From: Candidatus Daviesbacteria bacterium
GTDB taxonomy: Bacteria; Patescibacteriota; Microgenomatia; Daviesbacterales; UBA10151
Direction of reading: 5' to 3'
DNA length: 64,000 nucleotides
Assembly: GCA_016186955.1 (NCBI GenBank)
Contig: JACPKP010000003.1
Coordinates: 258,290 to 322,289 of the forward strand
Shown: positions 2,119 through 41,197 of the stretch, one piece after another
Layout: every line of letters begins with the position of its first letter
How positions within the stretch are numbered: position 1 is the stretch's first letter
Translations under genes and position numbers: made by a program
The notes under the pieces: generated by a model
Database searches by the model: none
The model's input: the letters and a program-made list of their open reading frames with translations, nothing else
Told to the model about the DNA's origin: nothing

Positions 2119-2180
2119 CATTGCGAGGAGCGTAGCGACGTGGCAATCTCTTGTAAATAAGATCGCCACGCTCCGCTCGC
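2119..2180 (+). promoter_or_regulatory. long imperfect inverted repeat (hairpin) between glyA and folD; terminator/attenuator or palindromic repeat element
   Basis: tgtcattgcgaggagcgtagcgacgtggc ... gccacgctccgctcgcgatgaca; shares gagcgtagcga core with palindromic element at 3128-3196. Confidence 0.4.
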
Positions 2181-2181
2181 G

Positions 2182-3033
2182 ATGACAAAGGAAGTAGATA
2201 TGGATGAGCAAAGCTCTTCTTTGAATAAAATCATTGACGGAAAAACATTGGCGCTAGAACATGAGGAAAAGTTAAGGCAAACCCTGGCCCAATTTAAAAA
2301 CGGGCGCCTGCCAAAACTGGTCAGTTTTGTAAACAAAAACGATGAACCTTCCGTAAAATATACAAACATGAAATCAAAAAAAGCAGAGGCACTCGGGATC
2401 CAATTTATCACCAGGAAAATTTCCCCCGGGACAAAATACTCATTGATCACCAGGGAGATTAAAAAATATAATGTTGACCCTTCAATAGACGGGATAATGG
2501 TGCAGCTGCCTATCCCTGAGAGTGTTTTAGATGGGAAATTACCCAAGGAGTTGTTGGATAAAATTTTACCAGAGAAGGACGTGGATGGTTTAACTGAGAG
2601 ATCTCAATATCTGCCTGCCACAGTCAAAGGGGTGATGACAATTTTAGAATCCGAGGGGGTTTTGGGGAAGGGTAAAGTGATCAGAGTGTTGGGAGGGGTG
2701 CATGGGATGGTGGGTTCAAGTTTGGTAAAAGCGCTTCATGGAATGCATGAGAAAGTGATAGGGGTGTCCAAATCTGATCCGGCAATAAAGACTTTAGCCA
2801 GGTGGGCGGATATTTTAATCAGTGCGGTGGGACAGCCTAATCTTGTAACTGAAGATATGGTCAAACCCGGGGCGGTGGTGGTGGATGTCGGCAAAGATGT
2901 TGATACTGAAAATGTAATGAAAAAAGTTTCCAGGATTACCCCCAAGATTGGTGGTGTCGGCCCCATGACAGTTATCTCTTTGATGGAAAATGTGACTGAG
3001 GCATTTTGCCGAAGTCATCCTGAGCGATCCTGA
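2182..3033 (+). CDS. folD: bifunctional methylenetetrahydrofolate dehydrogenase/cyclohydrolase
   Basis: 283 aa; N-terminal IIDGK, C-terminal GGVGPMTVISLMENV typical of FolD; nucleotide-binding loop divergent. Confidence 0.85.
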   Translation: MTKEVDMDEQSSSLNKIIDGKTLALEHEEKLRQTLAQFKNGRLPKLVSFVNKNDEPSVKYTNMKSKKAEALGIQFITRKISPGTKYSLITREIKKYNVDPSIDGIMVQLPIPESVLDGKLPKELLDKILPEKDVDGLTERSQYLPATVKGVMTILESEGVLGKGKVIRVLGGVHGMVGSSLVKALHGMHEKVIGVSKSDPAIKTLARWADILISAVGQPNLVTEDMVKPGAVVVDVGKDVDTENVMKKVSRITPKIGGVGPMTVISLMENVTEAFCRSHPERS

Positions 3034-3127
3034 GCTTGCCGAAGGAGAGTCGAAGGATCTGATAAATTTTCCTAGCTCGTGATTTCGCGAACCGTTTTCT
3101 AGAAATTAATTAGTATTTACCAGTAAA

Positions 3128-3196
3128 CTGTCATCCTGAGCGTAGCGAAGGATATAATTAAATTATATTCTTCGGCTTTCAGCCTCAGAATGACAG
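3128..3196. repeat. long imperfect palindromic element (GTCATCCTGAGCG...CGAAGGAT family)
   Basis: ctgtcatcctgagcgtagcgaaggatataatt/aattatattcttcgg...cagcctcagaatgacag near-perfect hairpin; related fragment at 3030-3060; spurious minus ORF 3117-3353 spans it. Confidence 0.6.
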
Positions 3197-3284
3197 GTCC
3201 GCTGGGAAACACTGAATAGTTACGTTTTCTATGCTCGCAATAATTTATGGAACATGTTAAAATAAATGCTAGAAATTTTAGGAG

Positions 3285-3509
3285 GTGAAAATTATGATAG
3301 AAAAAGAAAAAAGGAATGAACAGGAGAGAGAGTTTTTTAAAGCGCTTGCACAAATTAAATCATTAGCTGAGTTGAGAGCGCTGATTGGTGAATTTACTCC
3401 AGAAGAGAAGGCATTAATTGATAGTTTGGATCTGGATACCCCACTAACAGAGGAAGAATTAGAGTTTGCTCATGCTTTTAGAGAAAGAATGATGCAAGAA
3501 TTTAATTGA
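3285..3509 (+). CDS. small hypothetical protein (74 aa)
   Basis: ORF only. Confidence 0.3.
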   Translation: MKIMIEKEKRNEQEREFFKALAQIKSLAELRALIGEFTPEEKALIDSLDLDTPLTEEELEFAHAFRERMMQEFN

Positions 3510-4475: not shown

Positions 4476-5159
4476 CTAGTTAAAATCCTCAGGATTAATT
4501 TCCCAGGGTAGTACAAAACCATCATTTTCTTTTGCCAACTCGTAAAGCTTTACATGATCTTCTAAACTTTTTGCCTGGAAGTAAATTTTCCCGTCACCTG
4601 TAAATCTATCCACCTTTAATTCTAATCCTCTCCAGGTACAGTTTAAGCCATACCCCAAAGGATGCCCCGCAGTATTTTGGTTTCTTTTCTCCAACTCTTG
4701 CTTTGCCCTTTCCGTAATGTCGCTTAGTATAACTATTTGGGGGTTTGTCTGATTGGGATAAAATTTTTGCAATAATCCTCTTGAAAATGCTTCATATATC
4801 GGCGAAAATATGCCTGCAACAAAACTATCACTTCCTGCAATCATACTCCAGTCTCTCCCGCAGGCTTCTTTAGCAGCGGCAGCTGAATAAAGGATTTTCC
4901 AGTATAACCTGTGATCATCCCTGCCCTGATCCCAAACAGGCCTGCCCTTACTCTTTCTTGCAGCTATCACTGCCGGATCAGTTGGCGCTATGTGATTAAG
5001 GATTCCATCATTCCAGAGAATTTCAATAAAATCTTCCCTGGTTTGTTCATCTAAGATGAAAAAAATGTCCAAGGATTCCTGCAAAGAATCTTGCCAGGTA
5101 TATTTAGTCCGTTCGTTAAACATGGGAAAAATTATATCAAATTTTTGCACCAAAGTCAA
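4476..5159 (-). CDS. hypothetical protein (227 aa)
   Basis: ORF only; no recognisable family. Confidence 0.4.
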   Translation of the reverse strand: MTLVQKFDIIFPMFNERTKYTWQDSLQESLDIFFILDEQTREDFIEILWNDGILNHIAPTDPAVIAARKSKGRPVWDQGRDDHRLYWKILYSAAAAKEACGRDWSMIAGSDSFVAGIFSPIYEAFSRGLLQKFYPNQTNPQIVILSDITERAKQELEKRNQNTAGHPLGYGLNCTWRGLELKVDRFTGDGKIYFQAKSLEDHVKLYELAKENDGFVLPWEINPEDFN

Positions 5160-21515: not shown

Positions 21516-22448
21516 ATGTTAAAACTATTTAACTCACTTTCGCGCAAAATTGAGGAGTTTGTTCCGCTTAATCCCCCAAAAGTTGGCGTATATGCCTGCG
21601 GGCCCACTGTTTATGACTTCGCCCATATCGGAAACTTAAGGAGTTTTGTAATGTATGATATTTTGCGCAGGGTTCTGGAAGCAGATGGGTATGAAGTAAC
21701 TTTTGTAGAAAACATCACGGATATTGATGACAAAATTATTAAAAAAGCCAAAGAAAAAAACCTGGATATGGCAGAATTTACAAAGCAGTATACGGAATAT
21801 TTCTTGGAAGACTTAAACAAACTAAATATAAAACTTCCTGATGTCCAGCCCAAAGCGACTGAGCATATCAGCCTGATGGTTAAATATATAGAGGTTTTAC
21901 TAGACAAAGGGTTGGCTTATGCCGAAAAAGACGGGTCGGTATATTTTGACATCTCAAAATTTCCGGATTATGGAAAATTATCCGGGGTTGAAAAACGCGA
22001 GCTTAAAACAGGGACCAGGGTGCTTTCGGATGAATACACAAAAGAAAATATCCAGGATTTTGCACTATGGAAAGGAGTTGAGGCGGATGAGTTTGGTTGG
22101 GACAGCCCCTGGGGAAAAGGCAGGCCGGGCTGGCATATCGAATGTTCGGTGATGAGCCAAAAGTATTTGGGTGATACCCTGGACATCCATGCAGGAGGAA
22201 TAGATTTGATGTTTCCCCATCATGAAAACGAAATTGCCCAATCAGAGGGAAAAACAGGCAAACTATTTGCCAAATTTTTTGTTCATGGCGAACATCTTTT
22301 GGTTGATGCCCAAAAGATGAGTAAATCCTTAAATAATTTTTATACATTAAAGGACATTGAGGAGAAAGGCCTGCCTGCCCTGCCCTGCCGGCAGGCGGGC
22401 GGCAGGCAGGGTTTTGATGCCTTGGCTTACCGCTTCGTGAAATGGTGA
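21516..22448 (+). CDS. cysS: cysteine--tRNA ligase, N-terminal catalytic part (gene apparently interrupted by frameshift near 22440)
   Basis: HIGN (HIGH) and KMSKS class I motifs; stops after GC-rich palindromic insertion. Confidence 0.85.
   Translation: MLKLFNSLSRKIEEFVPLNPPKVGVYACGPTVYDFAHIGNLRSFVMYDILRRVLEADGYEVTFVENITDIDDKIIKKAKEKNLDMAEFTKQYTEYFLEDLNKLNIKLPDVQPKATEHISLMVKYIEVLLDKGLAYAEKDGSVYFDISKFPDYGKLSGVEKRELKTGTRVLSDEYTKENIQDFALWKGVEADEFGWDSPWGKGRPGWHIECSVMSQKYLGDTLDIHAGGIDLMFPHHENEIAQSEGKTGKLFAKFFVHGEHLLVDAQKMSKSLNNFYTLKDIEEKGLPALPCRQAGGRQGFDALAYRFVKW
22370..22410. repeat. GC-rich palindromic element inside cysS
   Basis: cctgcctgccctgccctgccggcaggcgggcggcaggcagg; same family as 40205-40244; coordinates +/-1. 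Confidence 0.85.
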
Positions 22449-22807
22449 GGGATTGGGAGAAGCCAAAAATTGGCTGCGCCCAGTATGAAGAAGATTTTTT
22501 TAAAGCGCTGGACAACGACTTAAACACACCTCAAGCCTTGGCTGTTATGTGGTATTTAATCAAATCCGATTACCCTACTTCCGCAAAGGCAGAAAGCCTG
22601 CTCAAGATGGACAAAGTTTTGGGGCTTGGGCTTGATAAATATTTGGGTAAACAAATTGATGTACCCGGTCAAGTACAGAAATTGGTTGATGAAAGGGAAC
22701 AGGCTAGAAAAGACCGCGATTTTGAAAAATCCGACCAGCTTAGAAAAAGAATAAAAGATATGGGATTTGAGATAGAGGATACACCTGAAGGTCCAAAAAT
22801 CAGATGA
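22442..22807 (+). CDS. cysS: cysteine--tRNA ligase, C-terminal part in different frame
   Basis: DNDLNTPQALAVMW matches CysS anticodon-binding helix motif; overlaps 5' ORF by 7 nt. Confidence 0.75.
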   Translation: MVRDWEKPKIGCAQYEEDFFKALDNDLNTPQALAVMWYLIKSDYPTSAKAESLLKMDKVLGLGLDKYLGKQIDVPGQVQKLVDEREQARKDRDFEKSDQLRKRIKDMGFEIEDTPEGPKIR

Positions 22808-22895
22808 GCCTCTACAGACTCCGCTTCGCTTCGCCCGTAGTTTCTCTTCCTGCTCGCCTTCGGCGAGATTCGCCTGTCGGCGAAGCAAACTTTAT

Positions 22896-22922
22896 CCACG
22901 GATTAGCATCCGTGGTTTTTCG
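22896..22922 (+). terminator. rho-independent terminator after cysS
   Basis: ccacggattagcatccgtgg + TTTTT. Confidence 0.6.
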
Positions 22923-22947
22923 TTTGAAAGAATAACCCTACGCACGC

Positions 22948-22970
22948 AAGGCGTCCCCTTTTGAGGCTAA
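22948..22970. repeat. 23-bp direct repeat copy 1 (with left and right extensions 22934-22981)
   Basis: aaggcgtccccttttgaggctaa; right extension encodes C-terminus IEDG-stop of transposase. Confidence 0.85.
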
Positions 22971-23647
22971 CCATCCTCAATTATGATATTTTGTATTTCC
23001 AATAGATCATCACTTTTTTCAACAAAAGCCTTGTACGATAGGGTAGGGTTTGTTTTTGAGAAATATGCCAATACCTCTTGTGGTTTGACCCAATCTGTTT
23101 TTCTTATTTCTAAGTACTCGGGGTAAGAAGACGGTTGCCCCTGCAAGGCGTCCCCTTTTGAGGCTAAAGCCTGTTTATGGATGTATTTGGACAGGTAAAC
23201 GAATTGTTGGTCAGTAACAACATTAACAGCTTTGTATACATCTTGATATAATCCGCCTACTCGTTTGTATTTACGGTTAAAATACATAGTGTATCTAGTG
23301 CAAAGGGAATTCATGAATTTGTCAATGGATTGTGCACTTCTTTGTTTGATCAAGAAATGGAAATGGTTCGGCATCAAACAATACGCCAATAAATTAATCT
23401 CGTCAGCAAAATTATTTAAACGGAGTAATTGTAAAATTTTTGCCCGTTCCTTATAAGAAATATTGGGATCAGACAATTTTTTCTTTAAATCAGTTTCGTT
23501 TTTGGGAAGCAAGTATTCCTTTAGATAATACAAAAAAACACCATAGTCTTGTTGGTCTGAAAAGATTAATCTTTTTTCAACTCCACGATTATAAATATGG
23601 TAATAACTATTTTCTAAGTATTGTTTATTTGAATTACGTGAAGGCAC
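22967..23647 (-). CDS. REP-associated tyrosine transposase (RAYT) / IS200-family Y1 HUH transposase
   Basis: YHIYNRG N-terminus, HUH motif LMPNHFHFLI, GGLYQ and KYIHKQ tyrosine motifs; 226 aa. Confidence 0.75.
   Translation of the reverse strand: MPSRNSNKQYLENSYYHIYNRGVEKRLIFSDQQDYGVFLYYLKEYLLPKNETDLKKKLSDPNISYKERAKILQLLRLNNFADEINLLAYCLMPNHFHFLIKQRSAQSIDKFMNSLCTRYTMYFNRKYKRVGGLYQDVYKAVNVVTDQQFVYLSKYIHKQALASKGDALQGQPSSYPEYLEIRKTDWVKPQEVLAYFSKTNPTLSYKAFVEKSDDLLEIQNIIIEDG
23145..23167. repeat. 23-bp repeat copy 2, in-frame inside transposase ORF
   Basis: encodes LASKGDAL on minus strand. Confidence 0.85.
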
Positions 23648-23696
23648 GTTGTGTTAATAGCATACTTAATTTTAAATTGCAAGCTTCTACGATCAC

Positions 23697-23719
23697 AAGG
23701 CGTCCCCTTTTGAGGCTAA
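23697..23719. repeat. 23-bp repeat copy 3 (+ right extension to 23730)
   Basis: cacaaggcgtccccttttgaggctaaccatcctcaat. Confidence 0.85.
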
Positions 23720-23730
23720 CCATCCTCAAT

Positions 23731-23759
23731 TTGACACGGGGTAACTATTATGGGATAAT
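23731..23759 (+). promoter_or_regulatory. sigma70-like promoter TTGACA-N17-GATAAT for exonuclease gene
   Basis: -35 abuts the repeat right flank; -10 ends 6 nt before ATG 23766. Confidence 0.45.
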
Positions 23760-23765
23760 GTTAAA

Positions 23766-24413
23766 ATGAAGGAAGAGCAATCTTTAGCTGAAAAGCGGCA
23801 GTTAATTTACGACCGTGGCCGGGAAATAGTGATGAATGCCCCTCAGCTTTATGTAGACGTAGATGTTGAAGCTGATGGGATAGCAGGTTATGGATCAATG
23901 CTATCCATAGGCGCCCAAAGCCCTACAGGTGAAGCGTTCTATAGTGAAATTAAACCTTTATTTGAAGAATTCATTCCAGGTAACAGGAAATTTTGCGAAG
24001 ATCATAATTTATCTCATGAACGTTTATTATTAGAGGCTTCGGATTATCAGAGTGTTATGGGTAATTTTTACAAATGGATTGAAGGATTAAAAAAAGCGGA
24101 TATTGGAAAATCCGCTGTATTTACAGCATTTAATGCGGCGTATGATTGGGCTTTTATTGATTTATATTTTACAAAAGCCGGATTTGAAAATCCCTTTGGC
24201 ATCGCCCCTTTTGATTTAAAATCACTGGCTTTACCGTTGACAGGGAATTGGGATTGGAAAATGACCTCTAAAAGCAGGTTACCAAGCATTATTATACCGG
24301 ATGGGGATTTTACCCACCATGCTTTAGAAGATGCCCAATACCAACAAAAACTGCATTTTGGTATGGCAGGATTATTAGGAAAAAGAAACTATCTCGATAT
24401 CGCCCATTATTAA
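23766..24413 (+). CDS. DEDDh-family 3'-5' exonuclease (DnaQ/RNase T-like)
   Basis: Exo I YVDVDVEADG, Exo II FNAAYDWAFID, Exo III HHALEDAQ. Confidence 0.7.
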   Translation: MKEEQSLAEKRQLIYDRGREIVMNAPQLYVDVDVEADGIAGYGSMLSIGAQSPTGEAFYSEIKPLFEEFIPGNRKFCEDHNLSHERLLLEASDYQSVMGNFYKWIEGLKKADIGKSAVFTAFNAAYDWAFIDLYFTKAGFENPFGIAPFDLKSLALPLTGNWDWKMTSKSRLPSIIIPDGDFTHHALEDAQYQQKLHFGMAGLLGKRNYLDIAHY

Positions 24414-24425
24414 CCCTACGCACGT

Positions 24426-24448
24426 AAGGCGTCCCCTTTTGAGGCTAA
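24426..24448. repeat. 23-bp repeat copy 4 (+ left extension from 24412 overlapping exonuclease stop codon)
   Basis: aaccctacgcacgtaaggcgtccccttttgaggctaa. Confidence 0.85.
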
Positions 24449-24458
24449 AAAATAATGC

Positions 24459-24782
24459 TTGACAAAACGCATTAATTATAAGATCATACTAACCATGGCA
24501 GAATGTAAATTTGATTGTCCGAATATAGATAATTGTCCACAATTAAAAGGTCAATGCCCTGCTTTTCCTACTGATACAACTGAAAGTGCCCTAGATTGGT
24601 GTAACCAGGTAGTTTCAGGGCGGAAGCAAGTCACTGAGCAGGTGGTAAGGAGAGAAGAAGTTATCGGCAGAAACCCTTTATTCCATAGTTTTACTGACAG
24701 TAGGATAGTTGGCAGACATACCCGGAAAATTTTTTTGGACGGCGATGTGGATGATTTGGAGCCTGACGATTATTTGAAATGA
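24459..24782 (+). CDS. Cys-rich small hypothetical protein (107 aa)
   Basis: ORF only. Confidence 0.3.
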   Translation: MTKRINYKIILTMAECKFDCPNIDNCPQLKGQCPAFPTDTTESALDWCNQVVSGRKQVTEQVVRREEVIGRNPLFHSFTDSRIVGRHTRKIFLDGDVDDLEPDDYLK

Positions 24783-24840
24783 GCTTCTTCAAATTCTAAT
24801 TACCTTGTTTGATTTTGGGTAATCTGTTAACATATCCTTC

Positions 24841-26115
24841 ATGTATCAGTTGGTAACCTTCAAAAACGGCCTGACGCTTATCACCATTGATCTTCCTCAC
24901 CTTGATTCTGTCACAACGCTGGTGGCAGTGGGGGCAGGCTCCAGGTACGAAACTAAAAACATTAATGGTATCTCCCATTTTCTGGAACACATGTTTTTTA
25001 AGGGTTCGCGAAAGTATCCTACTGCAGAGCAAATTGCAACCATAGTTGACGGGATGGGTGCGGTAAACAATGCTGCAACCGGCAAGGAATACACATTTTA
25101 TTGGATCAAATCCTCAGCCAAACATCTGGAAGTTGCCATGGATATCCTGTCCTCCCAGCTTAAGGAGTCGTTGCTTTTGGAGGAAGAGATAGAGAAAGAA
25201 AAAGGGGTGATTGCTGAGGAATTGAGGATGTACAGGGATAATCCTACCCGTTATATATGGGACCTTTATGAAAATTTACAGTTTGGTGACACGCCTTTGG
25301 GTTGGGATATCGGAGGAAAGGAAAAGATTATTCAAAAATTCGGCAGGCCGGATTTTGTAAAATATCTTGATTCTTTATACTCCCCCCAAAACATGGTGTT
25401 GGTTTTAGCCGGGAAACTGCCTCAAGATGTTAAAAAATTAGCGGAAAACTTCTTTTTGGATCTGCCAAATAGATCGGATTATGATTTTGTGCCATTTAAA
25501 AAATTAAAACAGCACAAACCCAAAATCAATGTTTTTTATAAAAAAACTGACCAGGCCAACCTGGTACTTGGTGTTGAGGGTTATGACAGATATGATGCGG
25601 AAAGGTATGCAGCCAGGGTTTTGGGTGTGATTTTGGGAGAAGGTATGTCTTCCAGGTTGTTTATTCAGGTTCGTGAGAAACGCGGATTGGCTTATCATGT
25701 CAGCGCAGGTTTTGACCCCTATAAAGACACCGGCGCTTTTACAGTCTATGCAGGATTAAAGCTGGAAAAAGTTGAGGAAGGCCTAGAGGTGATTATTGCA
25801 GAGCTTTTAAGAATTATTAAAGAAAAAGTTACAGAAGATGAGTTAAAAAAAGCAAAAGAGATGATCAGGGGAAGGTTGGCGATCAGGGCGGAGTCAACAA
25901 ACTTTTTAGCGGAATATTTTGGTACTAACTTTATTTTGGATCGTAAAATAGAGGAATTTGGGGACTTGCAAAAAAGGATTGATGGTGTTAGTCTCGAAGA
26001 TGTAAGGCTTGTTGCGGGCGAACTTTTCAAAGAAGAAAAGTTTAACTTACAGGTTATCGGCCCGTTTAAAAACAGCAAGTCTTTTGAGCGGATTCTGGTT
26101 GGAGGACCCCGATGA
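24841..26115 (+). CDS. M16-family zinc peptidase (insulinase-like)
   Basis: inverted zincin motif HFLEHMFFKGS, downstream E. Confidence 0.85.
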   Translation: MYQLVTFKNGLTLITIDLPHLDSVTTLVAVGAGSRYETKNINGISHFLEHMFFKGSRKYPTAEQIATIVDGMGAVNNAATGKEYTFYWIKSSAKHLEVAMDILSSQLKESLLLEEEIEKEKGVIAEELRMYRDNPTRYIWDLYENLQFGDTPLGWDIGGKEKIIQKFGRPDFVKYLDSLYSPQNMVLVLAGKLPQDVKKLAENFFLDLPNRSDYDFVPFKKLKQHKPKINVFYKKTDQANLVLGVEGYDRYDAERYAARVLGVILGEGMSSRLFIQVREKRGLAYHVSAGFDPYKDTGAFTVYAGLKLEKVEEGLEVIIAELLRIIKEKVTEDELKKAKEMIRGRLAIRAESTNFLAEYFGTNFILDRKIEEFGDLQKRIDGVSLEDVRLVAGELFKEEKFNLQVIGPFKNSKSFERILVGGPR

Positions 26116-40186: not shown

Positions 40187-41197
40187 ATGCTCAAAAACCA
40201 AAAAGGCCGTGCCTGCCCTGTCCGTCCGGCAGGCTGGCGGCAGGTAGGATTTGCTCCAATAATTTTGATAGTAGCTTTAGTAGTTTTAGTAGGAACTGGA
40301 GTATTTGTGTGGAGATCACAAAAGAATTCGACAACCCCATCTTCAACCCCGTCACCAACATTACCTACTAATATACCAGCAGAAGCCAAAACTTTGGTTC
40401 AACTAGCAATTAATGAAGCGGCCAAACAAGCTTTAGTAGATCCTAGCAAAGTGCAAATAATCAGTGTTGAAAAAATGGAGTGGTCAGATGGTAGTCTCGG
40501 TTGTCCTAAGCCTGGAATGGCGTATACCCAAGCCATAGTTTCTGGTTATTTGATTACCCTTGAGGTCACTGGCAGGCGTTTAGAGTATCACACAGACAAT
40601 GGCCAATTATTGGAACTTTGTAGTCAAAGCCAAACTTCAGATATTTCTAGTTGGAAAACATTTACTACCCCAGGAATAAATTCTGGCCTTATGCTTAAAT
40701 ACCCCCAAAATTGGTATTTTAAAGACTATGAACCGGCAACTCAAAAGGCTCACGCTCTTTACCAAAATGAACCATTTGATAGTCAAGATAATATTTCAAC
40801 CAAGGATGGCCTAATATTTGGAGAAATAAAAGTTATGACCACAGAAGCAATAAGAGGTTTAGAGTGGGCCAAGATCAAAGAACCAGAATTCTACAATCCT
40901 AATAGTGATTTTTGGTTAAAAGGAAGTGGTATAGGTGGCGGTCCTGGTTTCACTCAAGATATACCCACAGAAATCAAATTAGGCAGCAGACGAGCCATCC
41001 TACAAAGAACCTATCCTGATAAATCCTACGAATTTGTCTATCCTGACCAAATTACAAATAATTACTATGCTTATTTAGGAAATAGTTCAAATGAAGTTTT
41101 AATGATTTCTTTGACTTACGATCAGAAAAATCCAAAAGCAAAAAATGATTTAGATACTTTTGACCAAATCCTCTCCACCTTTAAATTCACAAATTGA
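40187..41197 (+). CDS. membrane-anchored hypothetical protein (336 aa) with GC-rich palindrome in N-terminal codons
   Basis: TM IILIVALVVLVGTGVFVW; true start may lie downstream of palindrome. Confidence 0.45.
   Translation: MLKNQKGRACPVRPAGWRQVGFAPIILIVALVVLVGTGVFVWRSQKNSTTPSSTPSPTLPTNIPAEAKTLVQLAINEAAKQALVDPSKVQIISVEKMEWSDGSLGCPKPGMAYTQAIVSGYLITLEVTGRRLEYHTDNGQLLELCSQSQTSDISSWKTFTTPGINSGLMLKYPQNWYFKDYEPATQKAHALYQNEPFDSQDNISTKDGLIFGEIKVMTTEAIRGLEWAKIKEPEFYNPNSDFWLKGSGIGGGPGFTQDIPTEIKLGSRRAILQRTYPDKSYEFVYPDQITNNYYAYLGNSSNEVLMISLTYDQKNPKAKNDLDTFDQILSTFKFTN
40205..40244. repeat. GC-rich palindromic element, second copy of cysS-type
   Basis: gtgcctgccctgtccgtccggcaggctggcggcagg. Confidence 0.85.

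Follow-up and report, generated by a model that had tools for sequence, protein, structure and literature searches.

The locus

A 1.5-kb block was analysed within 64 kb of Candidatus Daviesbacteria DNA (contig JACPKP010000003.1, positions 258,290 to 322,289; the whole 64-kb stretch is hereafter called the window, and positions are counted from its first letter). The block lies between cysS and the gene for an M16 peptidase. It carries a Y1 transposase gene, a divergent exonuclease gene and four exact copies of a 23-mer, AAGGCGTCCCCTTTTGAGGCTAA, all on the plus strand and starting at 22948, 23145, 23697 and 24426. A preliminary description had presented the locus as a transposase of the REP-associated tyrosine transposase type (RAYT; REP, repetitive extragenic palindrome) paired with an exonuclease, the two genes being delimited by the repeats. 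The features on which the argument turns are the following.

22967 to 23647, minus strand: Y1 HUH transposase of 226 aa, class 2 (RAYT-like), assigned by Pfam PF01797, homologues and an AlphaFold model
22934 to 22982, plus strand: hairpin unit 1, made of left flank AACCCTACGCACG, 23-mer and right flank CCATCCTCAATT
23135 to 23167, plus strand: hairpin unit 2, lying within the transposase gene and read in frame with it at nt +480 (codons ~161–171), encoding LASKGDAL
23687 to 23731, plus strand: hairpin unit 3, in the interval that separates the transposase gene from the divergent exonuclease gene
24412 to 24448, plus strand: hairpin unit 4, left flank and 23-mer; a solo copy just upstream of orf3
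23669 to 23698, minus strand: promoter-like site for the transposase, TTGTGA-N18-TAAAAT, its -35 lying in the hairpin arm
23766 to 24413, plus strand: DEDDh 3'-5' exonuclease of 215 aa, Cap18/Rv2179c-like, assigned by profile, structure and residue matches
23731 to 23759, plus strand: promoter-like site for the exonuclease, TTGACA-N17-GATAAT, beside unit 3 and not inside it

The four copies stand where the preliminary description had placed them, and the 23-mer has no further match with up to three mismatches in the window (0 expected, from 100 shuffles). Their flanks are shared, as had also been claimed: copies 1 and 3 are identical over 36 nt (22947–22982 and 23696–23731, core and right flank CCATCCTCAATT), and copies 1 and 4 agree over 38 nt with one mismatch (22933–22970 and 24411–24448, left flank AACCCTACGCACG and core). 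Read on the minus strand, unit 1 provides the transposase stop codon (TAG, 22967–22969), its right flank encoding IEDG, while unit 2 is translated in frame directly after the YIHKQ motif of the transposase; that one copy ends the gene and that another is in frame had been noticed beforehand, and both points hold. The right flank of unit 3 is that of unit 1, i.e. a 12-nt copy of the last four transposase codons, and unit 3 therefore derives from a transposase 3' end. Two details have to be amended. Unit 3 does separate the two genes, but it does not supply the -35 of the exonuclease promoter-like site, which begins at 23731 (12 nt after the 23-mer ends) and overlaps the shared flank by its final base only. 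Likewise, the overlap of the exonuclease stop codon (TAA, 24411–24413) is with the left flank of unit 4; the 23-mer starts further on, at 24426.

Several identities for the repeat were discarded. The irregular spacings of the copies (197, 552 and 729 nt), together with the presence of a coding copy, rule out a CRISPR-like or tandem array. A known structured RNA is ruled out as well, Rfam giving nothing near threshold over 22300–24900, and a phage or viral origin was rejected, the 20-mer of the core being absent from IMG/VR. Three Logan contigs of the same strain (L098–L100; SRR12113420/22/24) all start inside unit 3, 64 nt upstream of the exonuclease gene; the repeat breaks assemblies at this point, and these contigs give no alternative junction.

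The transposase

The assignment of the 226-aa protein to the Y1 transposases, proposed earlier from its HUH and tyrosine motifs, is confirmed. The protein matches Pfam Y1_Tnp (PF01797) with 45.8 bits, the cut-off being 23. Its HUH motif (NHFHF, H95 and H97) and its catalytic-tyrosine motif (YIHKQ, Y155) are invariant in 16 homologues, and the open reading frame (ORF) is intact, with all the invariant residues present. A sequence search of the PDB gave no match, and a fold search was used instead. With an AlphaFold model of moderate quality (predicted local distance difference test score, pLDDT, of 70), the top Foldseek hits were ISDra2 TnpA, IS608 TnpA and E. coli TnpA-REP (4er8), with a probability of 1.00 and a template-modelling (TM) score of up to 0.58 on the target. 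The single catalytic tyrosine, Y155, sits in this model on a C-terminal helix (residues 146–162). The peptide encoded by the internal hairpin (residues 164–169) follows that helix and is modelled with low confidence, as would be expected of a tolerated linker.

More than 7700 database matches were obtained for this protein, the best 120 of which are 68–75% identical over the full length; the protein clusters of the homologues are nearly all singletons. The match to the NCBIfam REP_Tyr_transpos equivalog is below threshold (35 bits against a cut-off of 80). The proposal that the protein is a RAYT-like (class 2) Y1 HUH transposase is supported, and the best reading of the sequence comparisons is that it belongs to an uncharacterised class-2 clade, abundant in Microgenomates. 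No description of this family was found in full-text literature searches that included candidate-phyla terms.

The hairpin element

Scanning species-representative genomes with the 20-nt core returned 15 loci in five other metagenome-assembled genomes (MAGs): Levyibacteriota, Gottesmanbacteria, and three labelled Gammaproteobacteria but syntenic with the Daviesbacteria window. In two MAGs other than that of the window the exact 20-mer is present in seven to eight copies at dispersed loci. Seen in the genomes returned by the scan, the core makes up the loop and the right arm of a palindrome of ~33 nt, CTAGCCTCGAAAGG-CGTCC-CCTTTTGAGGCTAG, whose consensus on the coding strand is TTAGCCTCRMAAGG-N5-CCTTKYGAGGCTAA. 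The 23-mer is thus the loop (CGTCC) and one arm of a larger palindromic element. The canonical unit folds into a 14-bp stem with a 5-nt loop (-12.4 kcal/mol, z = -4.6). Among 18 hairpins, 79% of the stem cells are paired, versus 27–54% when the partner is slid, the first percentage being inflated by the fact that this set was pre-filtered for complementarity of at least 8/14; nine of the 14 stem pairs have changed on both sides. The solo copies are mostly intergenic, just beyond gene ends, and some lie in frame within genes for threonyl-tRNA synthetase (ThrRS), an amidase and a family 2 glycosyltransferase (GT2). In this respect the element behaves like a REP-type repeat.

Some individual copies of the element deserve mention. 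The units located within long ORFs (L010, 2326–2345; L014, 1602–1621; L005, 3410–3429, in the ThrRS, amidase and GT2 genes) suggest in-frame insertions into housekeeping genes. In L012 (2118–3375), the ORF of a family 4 glycosyltransferase (GT4; 2154–3308) is tightly bracketed by units, the downstream side consisting of two tandem 37-bp units without spacer. In L110 (~4890–4960), upstream of the transposase gene, the left half-arm GCTAGCTTCGCAAGT occurs three times in tandem and is followed by a complete hairpin. As to the taxonomy, the MAG loci labelled 'uncultured Gammaproteobacteria' (L002–L007, L012, L013 and L015; CAZFVS, CAZQTD and CAYSNN) have the gene order of the Daviesbacteria window with 81–84% protein identity, and their label is almost certainly wrong.

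A conserved gene-plus-hairpin architecture

Eight transposase loci were inspected together with their DNA: the window and L003, L009, L013, L096, L097, L108 and L110, which come from Daviesbacteria, other Microgenomates and Levyibacteriota. The same arrangement recurs in them. A hairpin is found 31–76 nt before the transposase start at seven of the eight loci by scan, and a weaker one was seen by eye at the last (L097). A second hairpin lies in frame inside the gene, directly after the YIHKQ/YIHRN motif, at six of the eight loci (nt +480 in the window, L096, L097, L108 and L110; nt +504 in L013). At about six loci the TAG of a third hairpin is the stop codon of the gene (window, L003, L009, L013 and L096; L097 by eye). 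The flanking hairpins are in direct orientation in the window, L003, L009, L013 and L097. Three of the four window copies, units 3, 2 and 1, are therefore the standard upstream, internal and stop-codon hairpins of the family.

The loops differ between genomes, whereas within one genome the upstream and internal loops are the same:

Window: GGACG at the upstream, internal and stop-codon positions
L096: AGACT upstream and internal, TCTGA at the stop codon
L097: AGACT at all three positions (upstream and stop-codon copies by eye)
L108: ACCAA upstream and internal
L110: CCACG upstream and internal

The tyrosine motif itself varies among members, being YIHKQ in the window, YIHRNP in L003 and L009, and YIHRNA in L013. 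In the window, the right arm of the upstream hairpin provides the -35-like hexamer (TTGYRA) of the transposase promoter-like site; inspection by eye shows this arm to yield TTGTGT in L096 and TTGCAA in L108, in both cases with a -10-like hexamer ~17 nt further on. This overlap suggests, although it does not prove, that the transposase gene is autoregulated.

A RAYT-like gene, probably largely domesticated

RAYTs have been described as conserved, vertically inherited genes. The present family behaves similarly: in L096 and L097 the transposase gene occupies the same position in the dcw cluster, it is 86% identical between the two, versus 66–82% for the flanking housekeeping genes, and, as mentioned above, the homologues form mostly singleton clusters. 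Conversely, the locus differs in L108, L110 and the window, and the gene is absent from the corresponding site of a close relative (L004, see below), which indicates that it moves on longer time scales. The window was searched for a second transposase copy, a dcw cluster and further hairpins, and none was found. The best reading of these comparisons is that the gene is largely domesticated, RAYT-like, and probably under purifying selection in the relatives.

The closest known systems are the REPtrons, formed by class 2 TnpA-Y1 enzymes (RAYT/TnpA-REP) and their REPs (Nunvar 2010, Ton-Hoang 2012, Bertels 2017, Quentin 2018, PMC6006769). As in REPtrons, a Y1 HUH enzyme is flanked by cognate palindromic hairpins, which in other MAGs are also dispersed singly, some at gene ends and some within genes; the gene itself is conserved, low in copy number and kept in local synteny (L096, L097), and the fold matches that of E. 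coli TnpA-REP (4er8). However, the flanking hairpins are direct here whereas REPs of REPtrons are inverted (REPIN/BIME, i.e. REP doublets forming hairpins or bacterial interspersed mosaic elements), the foot is [CT]TAG instead of GT[AG]G, the tyrosine motif of the window is YIHKQ instead of the class 2 Y---NP (although L003 and L009 have YIHRNP), and the NCBIfam equivalog is matched with 35 rather than 80 bits. A canonical REPtron is excluded on these four counts, and an equivalog of the E. coli-type RAYT on the NCBIfam score.

The nearest literature description is that of TnpA-Y1 subclass 2.4 (RAYT group 4), for which Quentin et al. 2018 (PMC6006769) report an NH[IFV]H motif, 'double-foot' palindromes and in-frame cognate palindromes in the transposase gene. 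The likeness is one of features. The window transposase has an NH[IFV]H motif, its element is a long, symmetric double-foot palindrome (TTAG...CTAA), and a cognate palindrome lies in frame inside the gene. It differs from subclass 2.4 in that the internal hairpin occupies one fixed codon position across genomes, directly after the tyrosine motif, in that the loop of this hairpin matches that of the upstream one, and in that the hosts are candidate-phyla bacteria.

A resemblance to IS200, IS608 and ISDra2 also exists, in that two subterminal same-strand hairpins surround a lone small tnpA in a module of ~0.77 kb and the fold matches ISDra2 and IS608 TnpA. By contrast with subclass 1.1 (IS200/IS605), characterised in the same paper (PMC6006769) by DH[VI]H, Y[IV]ENQ and a core-only protein of ~150 aa, the window protein has NHFH, YIHKQ and 226 aa with a C-terminal extension. 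Membership of this subclass is ruled out on motifs and length. There is no tnpB here, multiple near-identical copies appear to be lacking (one copy in 64 kb; clusters almost all singletons), and the conserved synteny and purifying selection in the relatives argue against an active insertion sequence.

The exonuclease and its other contexts

The preliminary description had recognised the three Exo motifs of a DEDDh 3'-5' exonuclease in the neighbouring 215-aa protein, and all the evidence agrees: the protein matches PF16473 (Rv2179c-like) with 27.3 bits (cut-off 27), its best solved-structure match is E. coli Cap18 (PDB 7T2S, E=1e-27), the 3'-5' exonuclease of cyclic oligonucleotide-based antiphage signalling systems (CBASS), the PADLOC 'Effector exonuclease' model gives 111 bits, and the residues of Exo I (DxE), Exo II (D) and Exo III (H-x4-D), namely D33, E35, D127, H184 and D189, are invariant in 19 homologues. 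The similarity to Cap18 and to the Rv2179c-like exoribonucleases thus extends from the Exo residues to the structure match and the PADLOC score. The context is another matter. Neither a CD-NTase nor Cap17 is found nearby in the window, the neighbours being the transposase and orf3, and the close candidate-phyla clade (50–74% identity) occurs in variable, non-CBASS contexts.

It had been suggested that the exonuclease is a cargo or a processing partner of the transposase. This was examined from both sides. On the exonuclease side, 83 loci were surveyed, namely 80 metagenome loci of homologues 31–74% identical (36 of which have at least 1 kb on both sides) and three more. A Y1 gene was found at none of the 83 by tblastn and a family hidden Markov model, and a hairpin of this type was found nowhere in these 455 kb. 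The two closest homologues (73–74% identity) lie beside genes for a dCMP deaminase and a CLC channel, without Y1 gene and without this hairpin; another homologue is next to a methyltransferase gene, and distant ones are next to genes for Cap17-like proteins or MFS transporters. On the transposase side, the pairing in the window aside, the exonuclease is absent from all eight loci. The survey and the contexts of the closest homologues rule out that this exonuclease is normally linked to Y1 genes or to this hairpin, and the claimed pairing does not stand. On this comparative sequence evidence the exonuclease is to be regarded as an accessory gene and a chance neighbour, not as a conserved partner.

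Other observations concern the exonuclease family and its expression. Homologues of ~35% identity come directly after a gene for a Cap17-like ATP nucleosidase, while those of ~50% identity are preceded by a conserved 238-aa protein with a weak DUF7347 match (loci of the distant and ~50%-identity homologues: L054–L057, L060, L076, L079, L080; L034–L048). It may be that the candidate-phyla clade moved out of a CBASS-type context. In the promoter-like sites of the exonuclease and of orf3, the -10-like hexamer is only ~6–8 nt before the ATG (23753–23768 and 24482–24497), a distance that suggests leaderless or near-leaderless mRNAs.

The site between cysS and the M16 peptidase gene

One relative, L004, is close enough for a direct comparison of the site (M16 peptidase 84% identical, CysRS 81%) and has the same gene order. 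There, an intact cysS is followed by one hairpin unit, orf3 and the M16 peptidase gene, without transposase and without exonuclease; this is the empty site that the preliminary description had proposed to look for in relatives. The left flank and the right-hand sequence of this single unit are the same as those of window copy 4, to which it is orthologous. Daviesbacteria and Microgenomates that are less closely related have also kept cysS and the M16 peptidase gene, with cytidylate kinase (cmk) or other genes in between, and neither the exonuclease nor the transposase is ever found between the two in these genomes. The differing contents show that this is a variable spot, and the 1.5-kb block was most simply gained in the window lineage. 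That the exonuclease is ancestral at this locus is ruled out, since L004 and L104–L107 lack it between cysS and M16. The neighbouring features are the following.

24495 to 24782, plus strand: orf3, encoding a small protein rich in Cys (95 aa, counted from its ATG); it is the gene conserved on the right-hand side of the insertion site
22810 to 22933, no strand: GC-rich spacer with several small hairpins, from the cysS stop to unit 1 (124 nt)

The spacer contains a terminator-like site (22896–22915, plus strand) and is absent from L004, where only 6 nt are found. The flanks of the units, named by their sequence, compare as follows.

Unit 1: left L, core, right R
Unit 3: left X, core, right R
Unit 4: left L, core, right Y
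L004 unit: left L, core, right Y

Unit 1 thus joins the left flank of unit 4 to the right flank carried by unit 3, a chimeric make-up that bears the signature of exchange inside the core. Such an exchange could have come about through the integration of one or two circles targeted to the hairpin, or because repeat copies recombined.

The left border of the site shows further peculiarities. cysS (21516–22807, with a break near 22430–22445) looks damaged: compared with L004 it lacks ~90 nt (residues LVLTAHYRDKLNFTWKSLEAAQNALNNLRET) and changes frame, so that it reads as two ORFs of 310 and 121 aa. It is either a pseudogene or an assembly error. A second, unrelated repeat, the GC-rich palindrome GGCCTGCCTGCCCTGCC...GGCAGGCGGGCGGCAGGCAGGG, is present at 22368–22412 and 40206–40248 in a genome of 40% GC; one copy is in frame inside cysS and the other inside the 5' end of an ORF (40187–41197).

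Discussion

The explanation favoured here, and held to be probable though well short of certain, is that a RAYT-like gene, largely domesticated, makes up a REPtron-like locus here, that it entered the cysS–M16 interval at a pre-existing hairpin, and that an accessory gene came to be bracketed by chance. The Y1 enzyme would bind the hairpin, probably as folded single-stranded DNA, then cut and rejoin DNA there. The upstream hairpin, lying over the -35 of the transposase, would be a possible autoregulatory operator. The 1.5-kb block would have entered the variable intergenic site at the hairpin already present there, either through strand transfer targeted to the hairpin or through recombination of hairpin copies, and the exonuclease, an accessory gene, would have ended up between two units without a role in the transposase reaction. 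As for the earlier claim about the repeats themselves, the part that makes them the cognate DNA element of the transposase is retained; they do not, however, delimit a two-gene unit by design, because three of them are at family-standard positions and the fourth is a pre-existing solo copy.

Several points weigh against this explanation. The second arm of the window copies is degenerate (8–9/14 complementary), and the 64 kb contain no hairpin of this type that is well formed; activity in this genome is therefore doubtful. No copy of the hairpin is found outside the locus within the window either, which leaves high-copy, REP-like dispersal unsupported for the source genome. The architecture was read from eight loci in a family with thousands of members, and the pre-filtering of the covariation set flatters its pairing. 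The direction of change at the insertion site is judged by parsimony from one close relative and three or four distant ones: an insertion in the window lineage is favoured, the less likely alternative being that L004 lost the block through recombination of units 1 and 4. Finally, the autoregulation and the cleavage steps are proposals of what the enzyme and its hairpin may do.

An unlikely competitor is a composite, hairpin-bounded mobile unit in which the transposase moves either the whole 1.5-kb block or two adjacent cassettes, the exonuclease being true cargo; in this reading the hairpin would act as an att-like site that is duplicated upon integration into a chromosomal hairpin. L004, which lacks both genes and keeps one unit, speaks for such a mechanism, and the flank arrangement (L-core-R, X-core-R, L-core-Y) is that expected if circles beginning with R had integrated at the core once or twice. 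The bracketed GT4 gene of L012 would be a comparable case, and the variable contexts of the exonuclease are those of an accessory gene. Yet recombination between dispersed repeats gives the same flank pattern without any transposition of cargo, the window hairpins are degenerate, and elsewhere the transposase gene is conserved and behaves as one inherited vertically. The 83 + 8 loci contained no second case of transposase with exonuclease, and the 455 kb no hairpin beside any other exonuclease gene. Of the two hallmarks of a composite transposon, the empty site in a relative was therefore found (L004), while recurrent linkage of the genes and the repeat was not.

Less likely still is that the external copies are relics, i.e. 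decaying leftovers of local duplication and gene conversion from the transposase gene, with no present function or mobility in this genome. All the window copies do lack a proper second arm and fold no better than shuffles, the 64 kb contain no canonical hairpin, unit 3 carries a copy of the last four transposase codons, and the adjacent cysS looks damaged. However, the variant arm of the window units (CTAsGCACG) recurs at three loci of the relative genome, and is therefore a lineage variant rather than the product of random decay. Besides, the 23-nt core is 100% identical in the four copies, the positions of the copies match the family-wide architecture, and the transposase ORF is intact with all its invariant residues.

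Slightly further down the scale, and quite speculative, comes the capture and shuffling of gene cassettes: the RAYT-like enzyme and its hairpins would excise single hairpin-bounded genes as circles and integrate them at any solo hairpin, of which the Cap18-like exonuclease here and the GT4 glycosyltransferase in L012 may be examples. If this were true, the cysS–M16 site would be an integron-like hotspot. As for a functional partnership in which the DEDDh exonuclease trims single-stranded DNA intermediates of the Y1 transposase, it is very improbable and already strongly disfavoured: the two genes are adjacent and divergent, share a control region around unit 3 and belong to families (HUH and DEDDh) that both act on single-stranded nucleic acid, but they co-occur at no other locus examined from either side, the closest exonuclease homologues have unrelated neighbours, and more distant ones lie beside Cap17-like genes, i.e. 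in a CBASS-type context.

The pairing of a Y1 transposase with an exonuclease does not, therefore, survive comparison with other genomes, and the locus is not worth pursuing on that ground. It does document one gain or loss event at a hairpin site between close relatives. What remains beyond this is a large family (more than 7700 matches) of conserved Y1 genes in candidate-phyla bacteria, with an unusually regular gene-plus-hairpin architecture: direct flanking hairpins, an in-frame hairpin after the catalytic tyrosine, and loops that match within a genome and differ between genomes. This family extends the RAYT/REP picture to bacteria with reduced genomes, and, being compact, lends itself to the study of co-evolution between a domesticated HUH enzyme and its DNA element.

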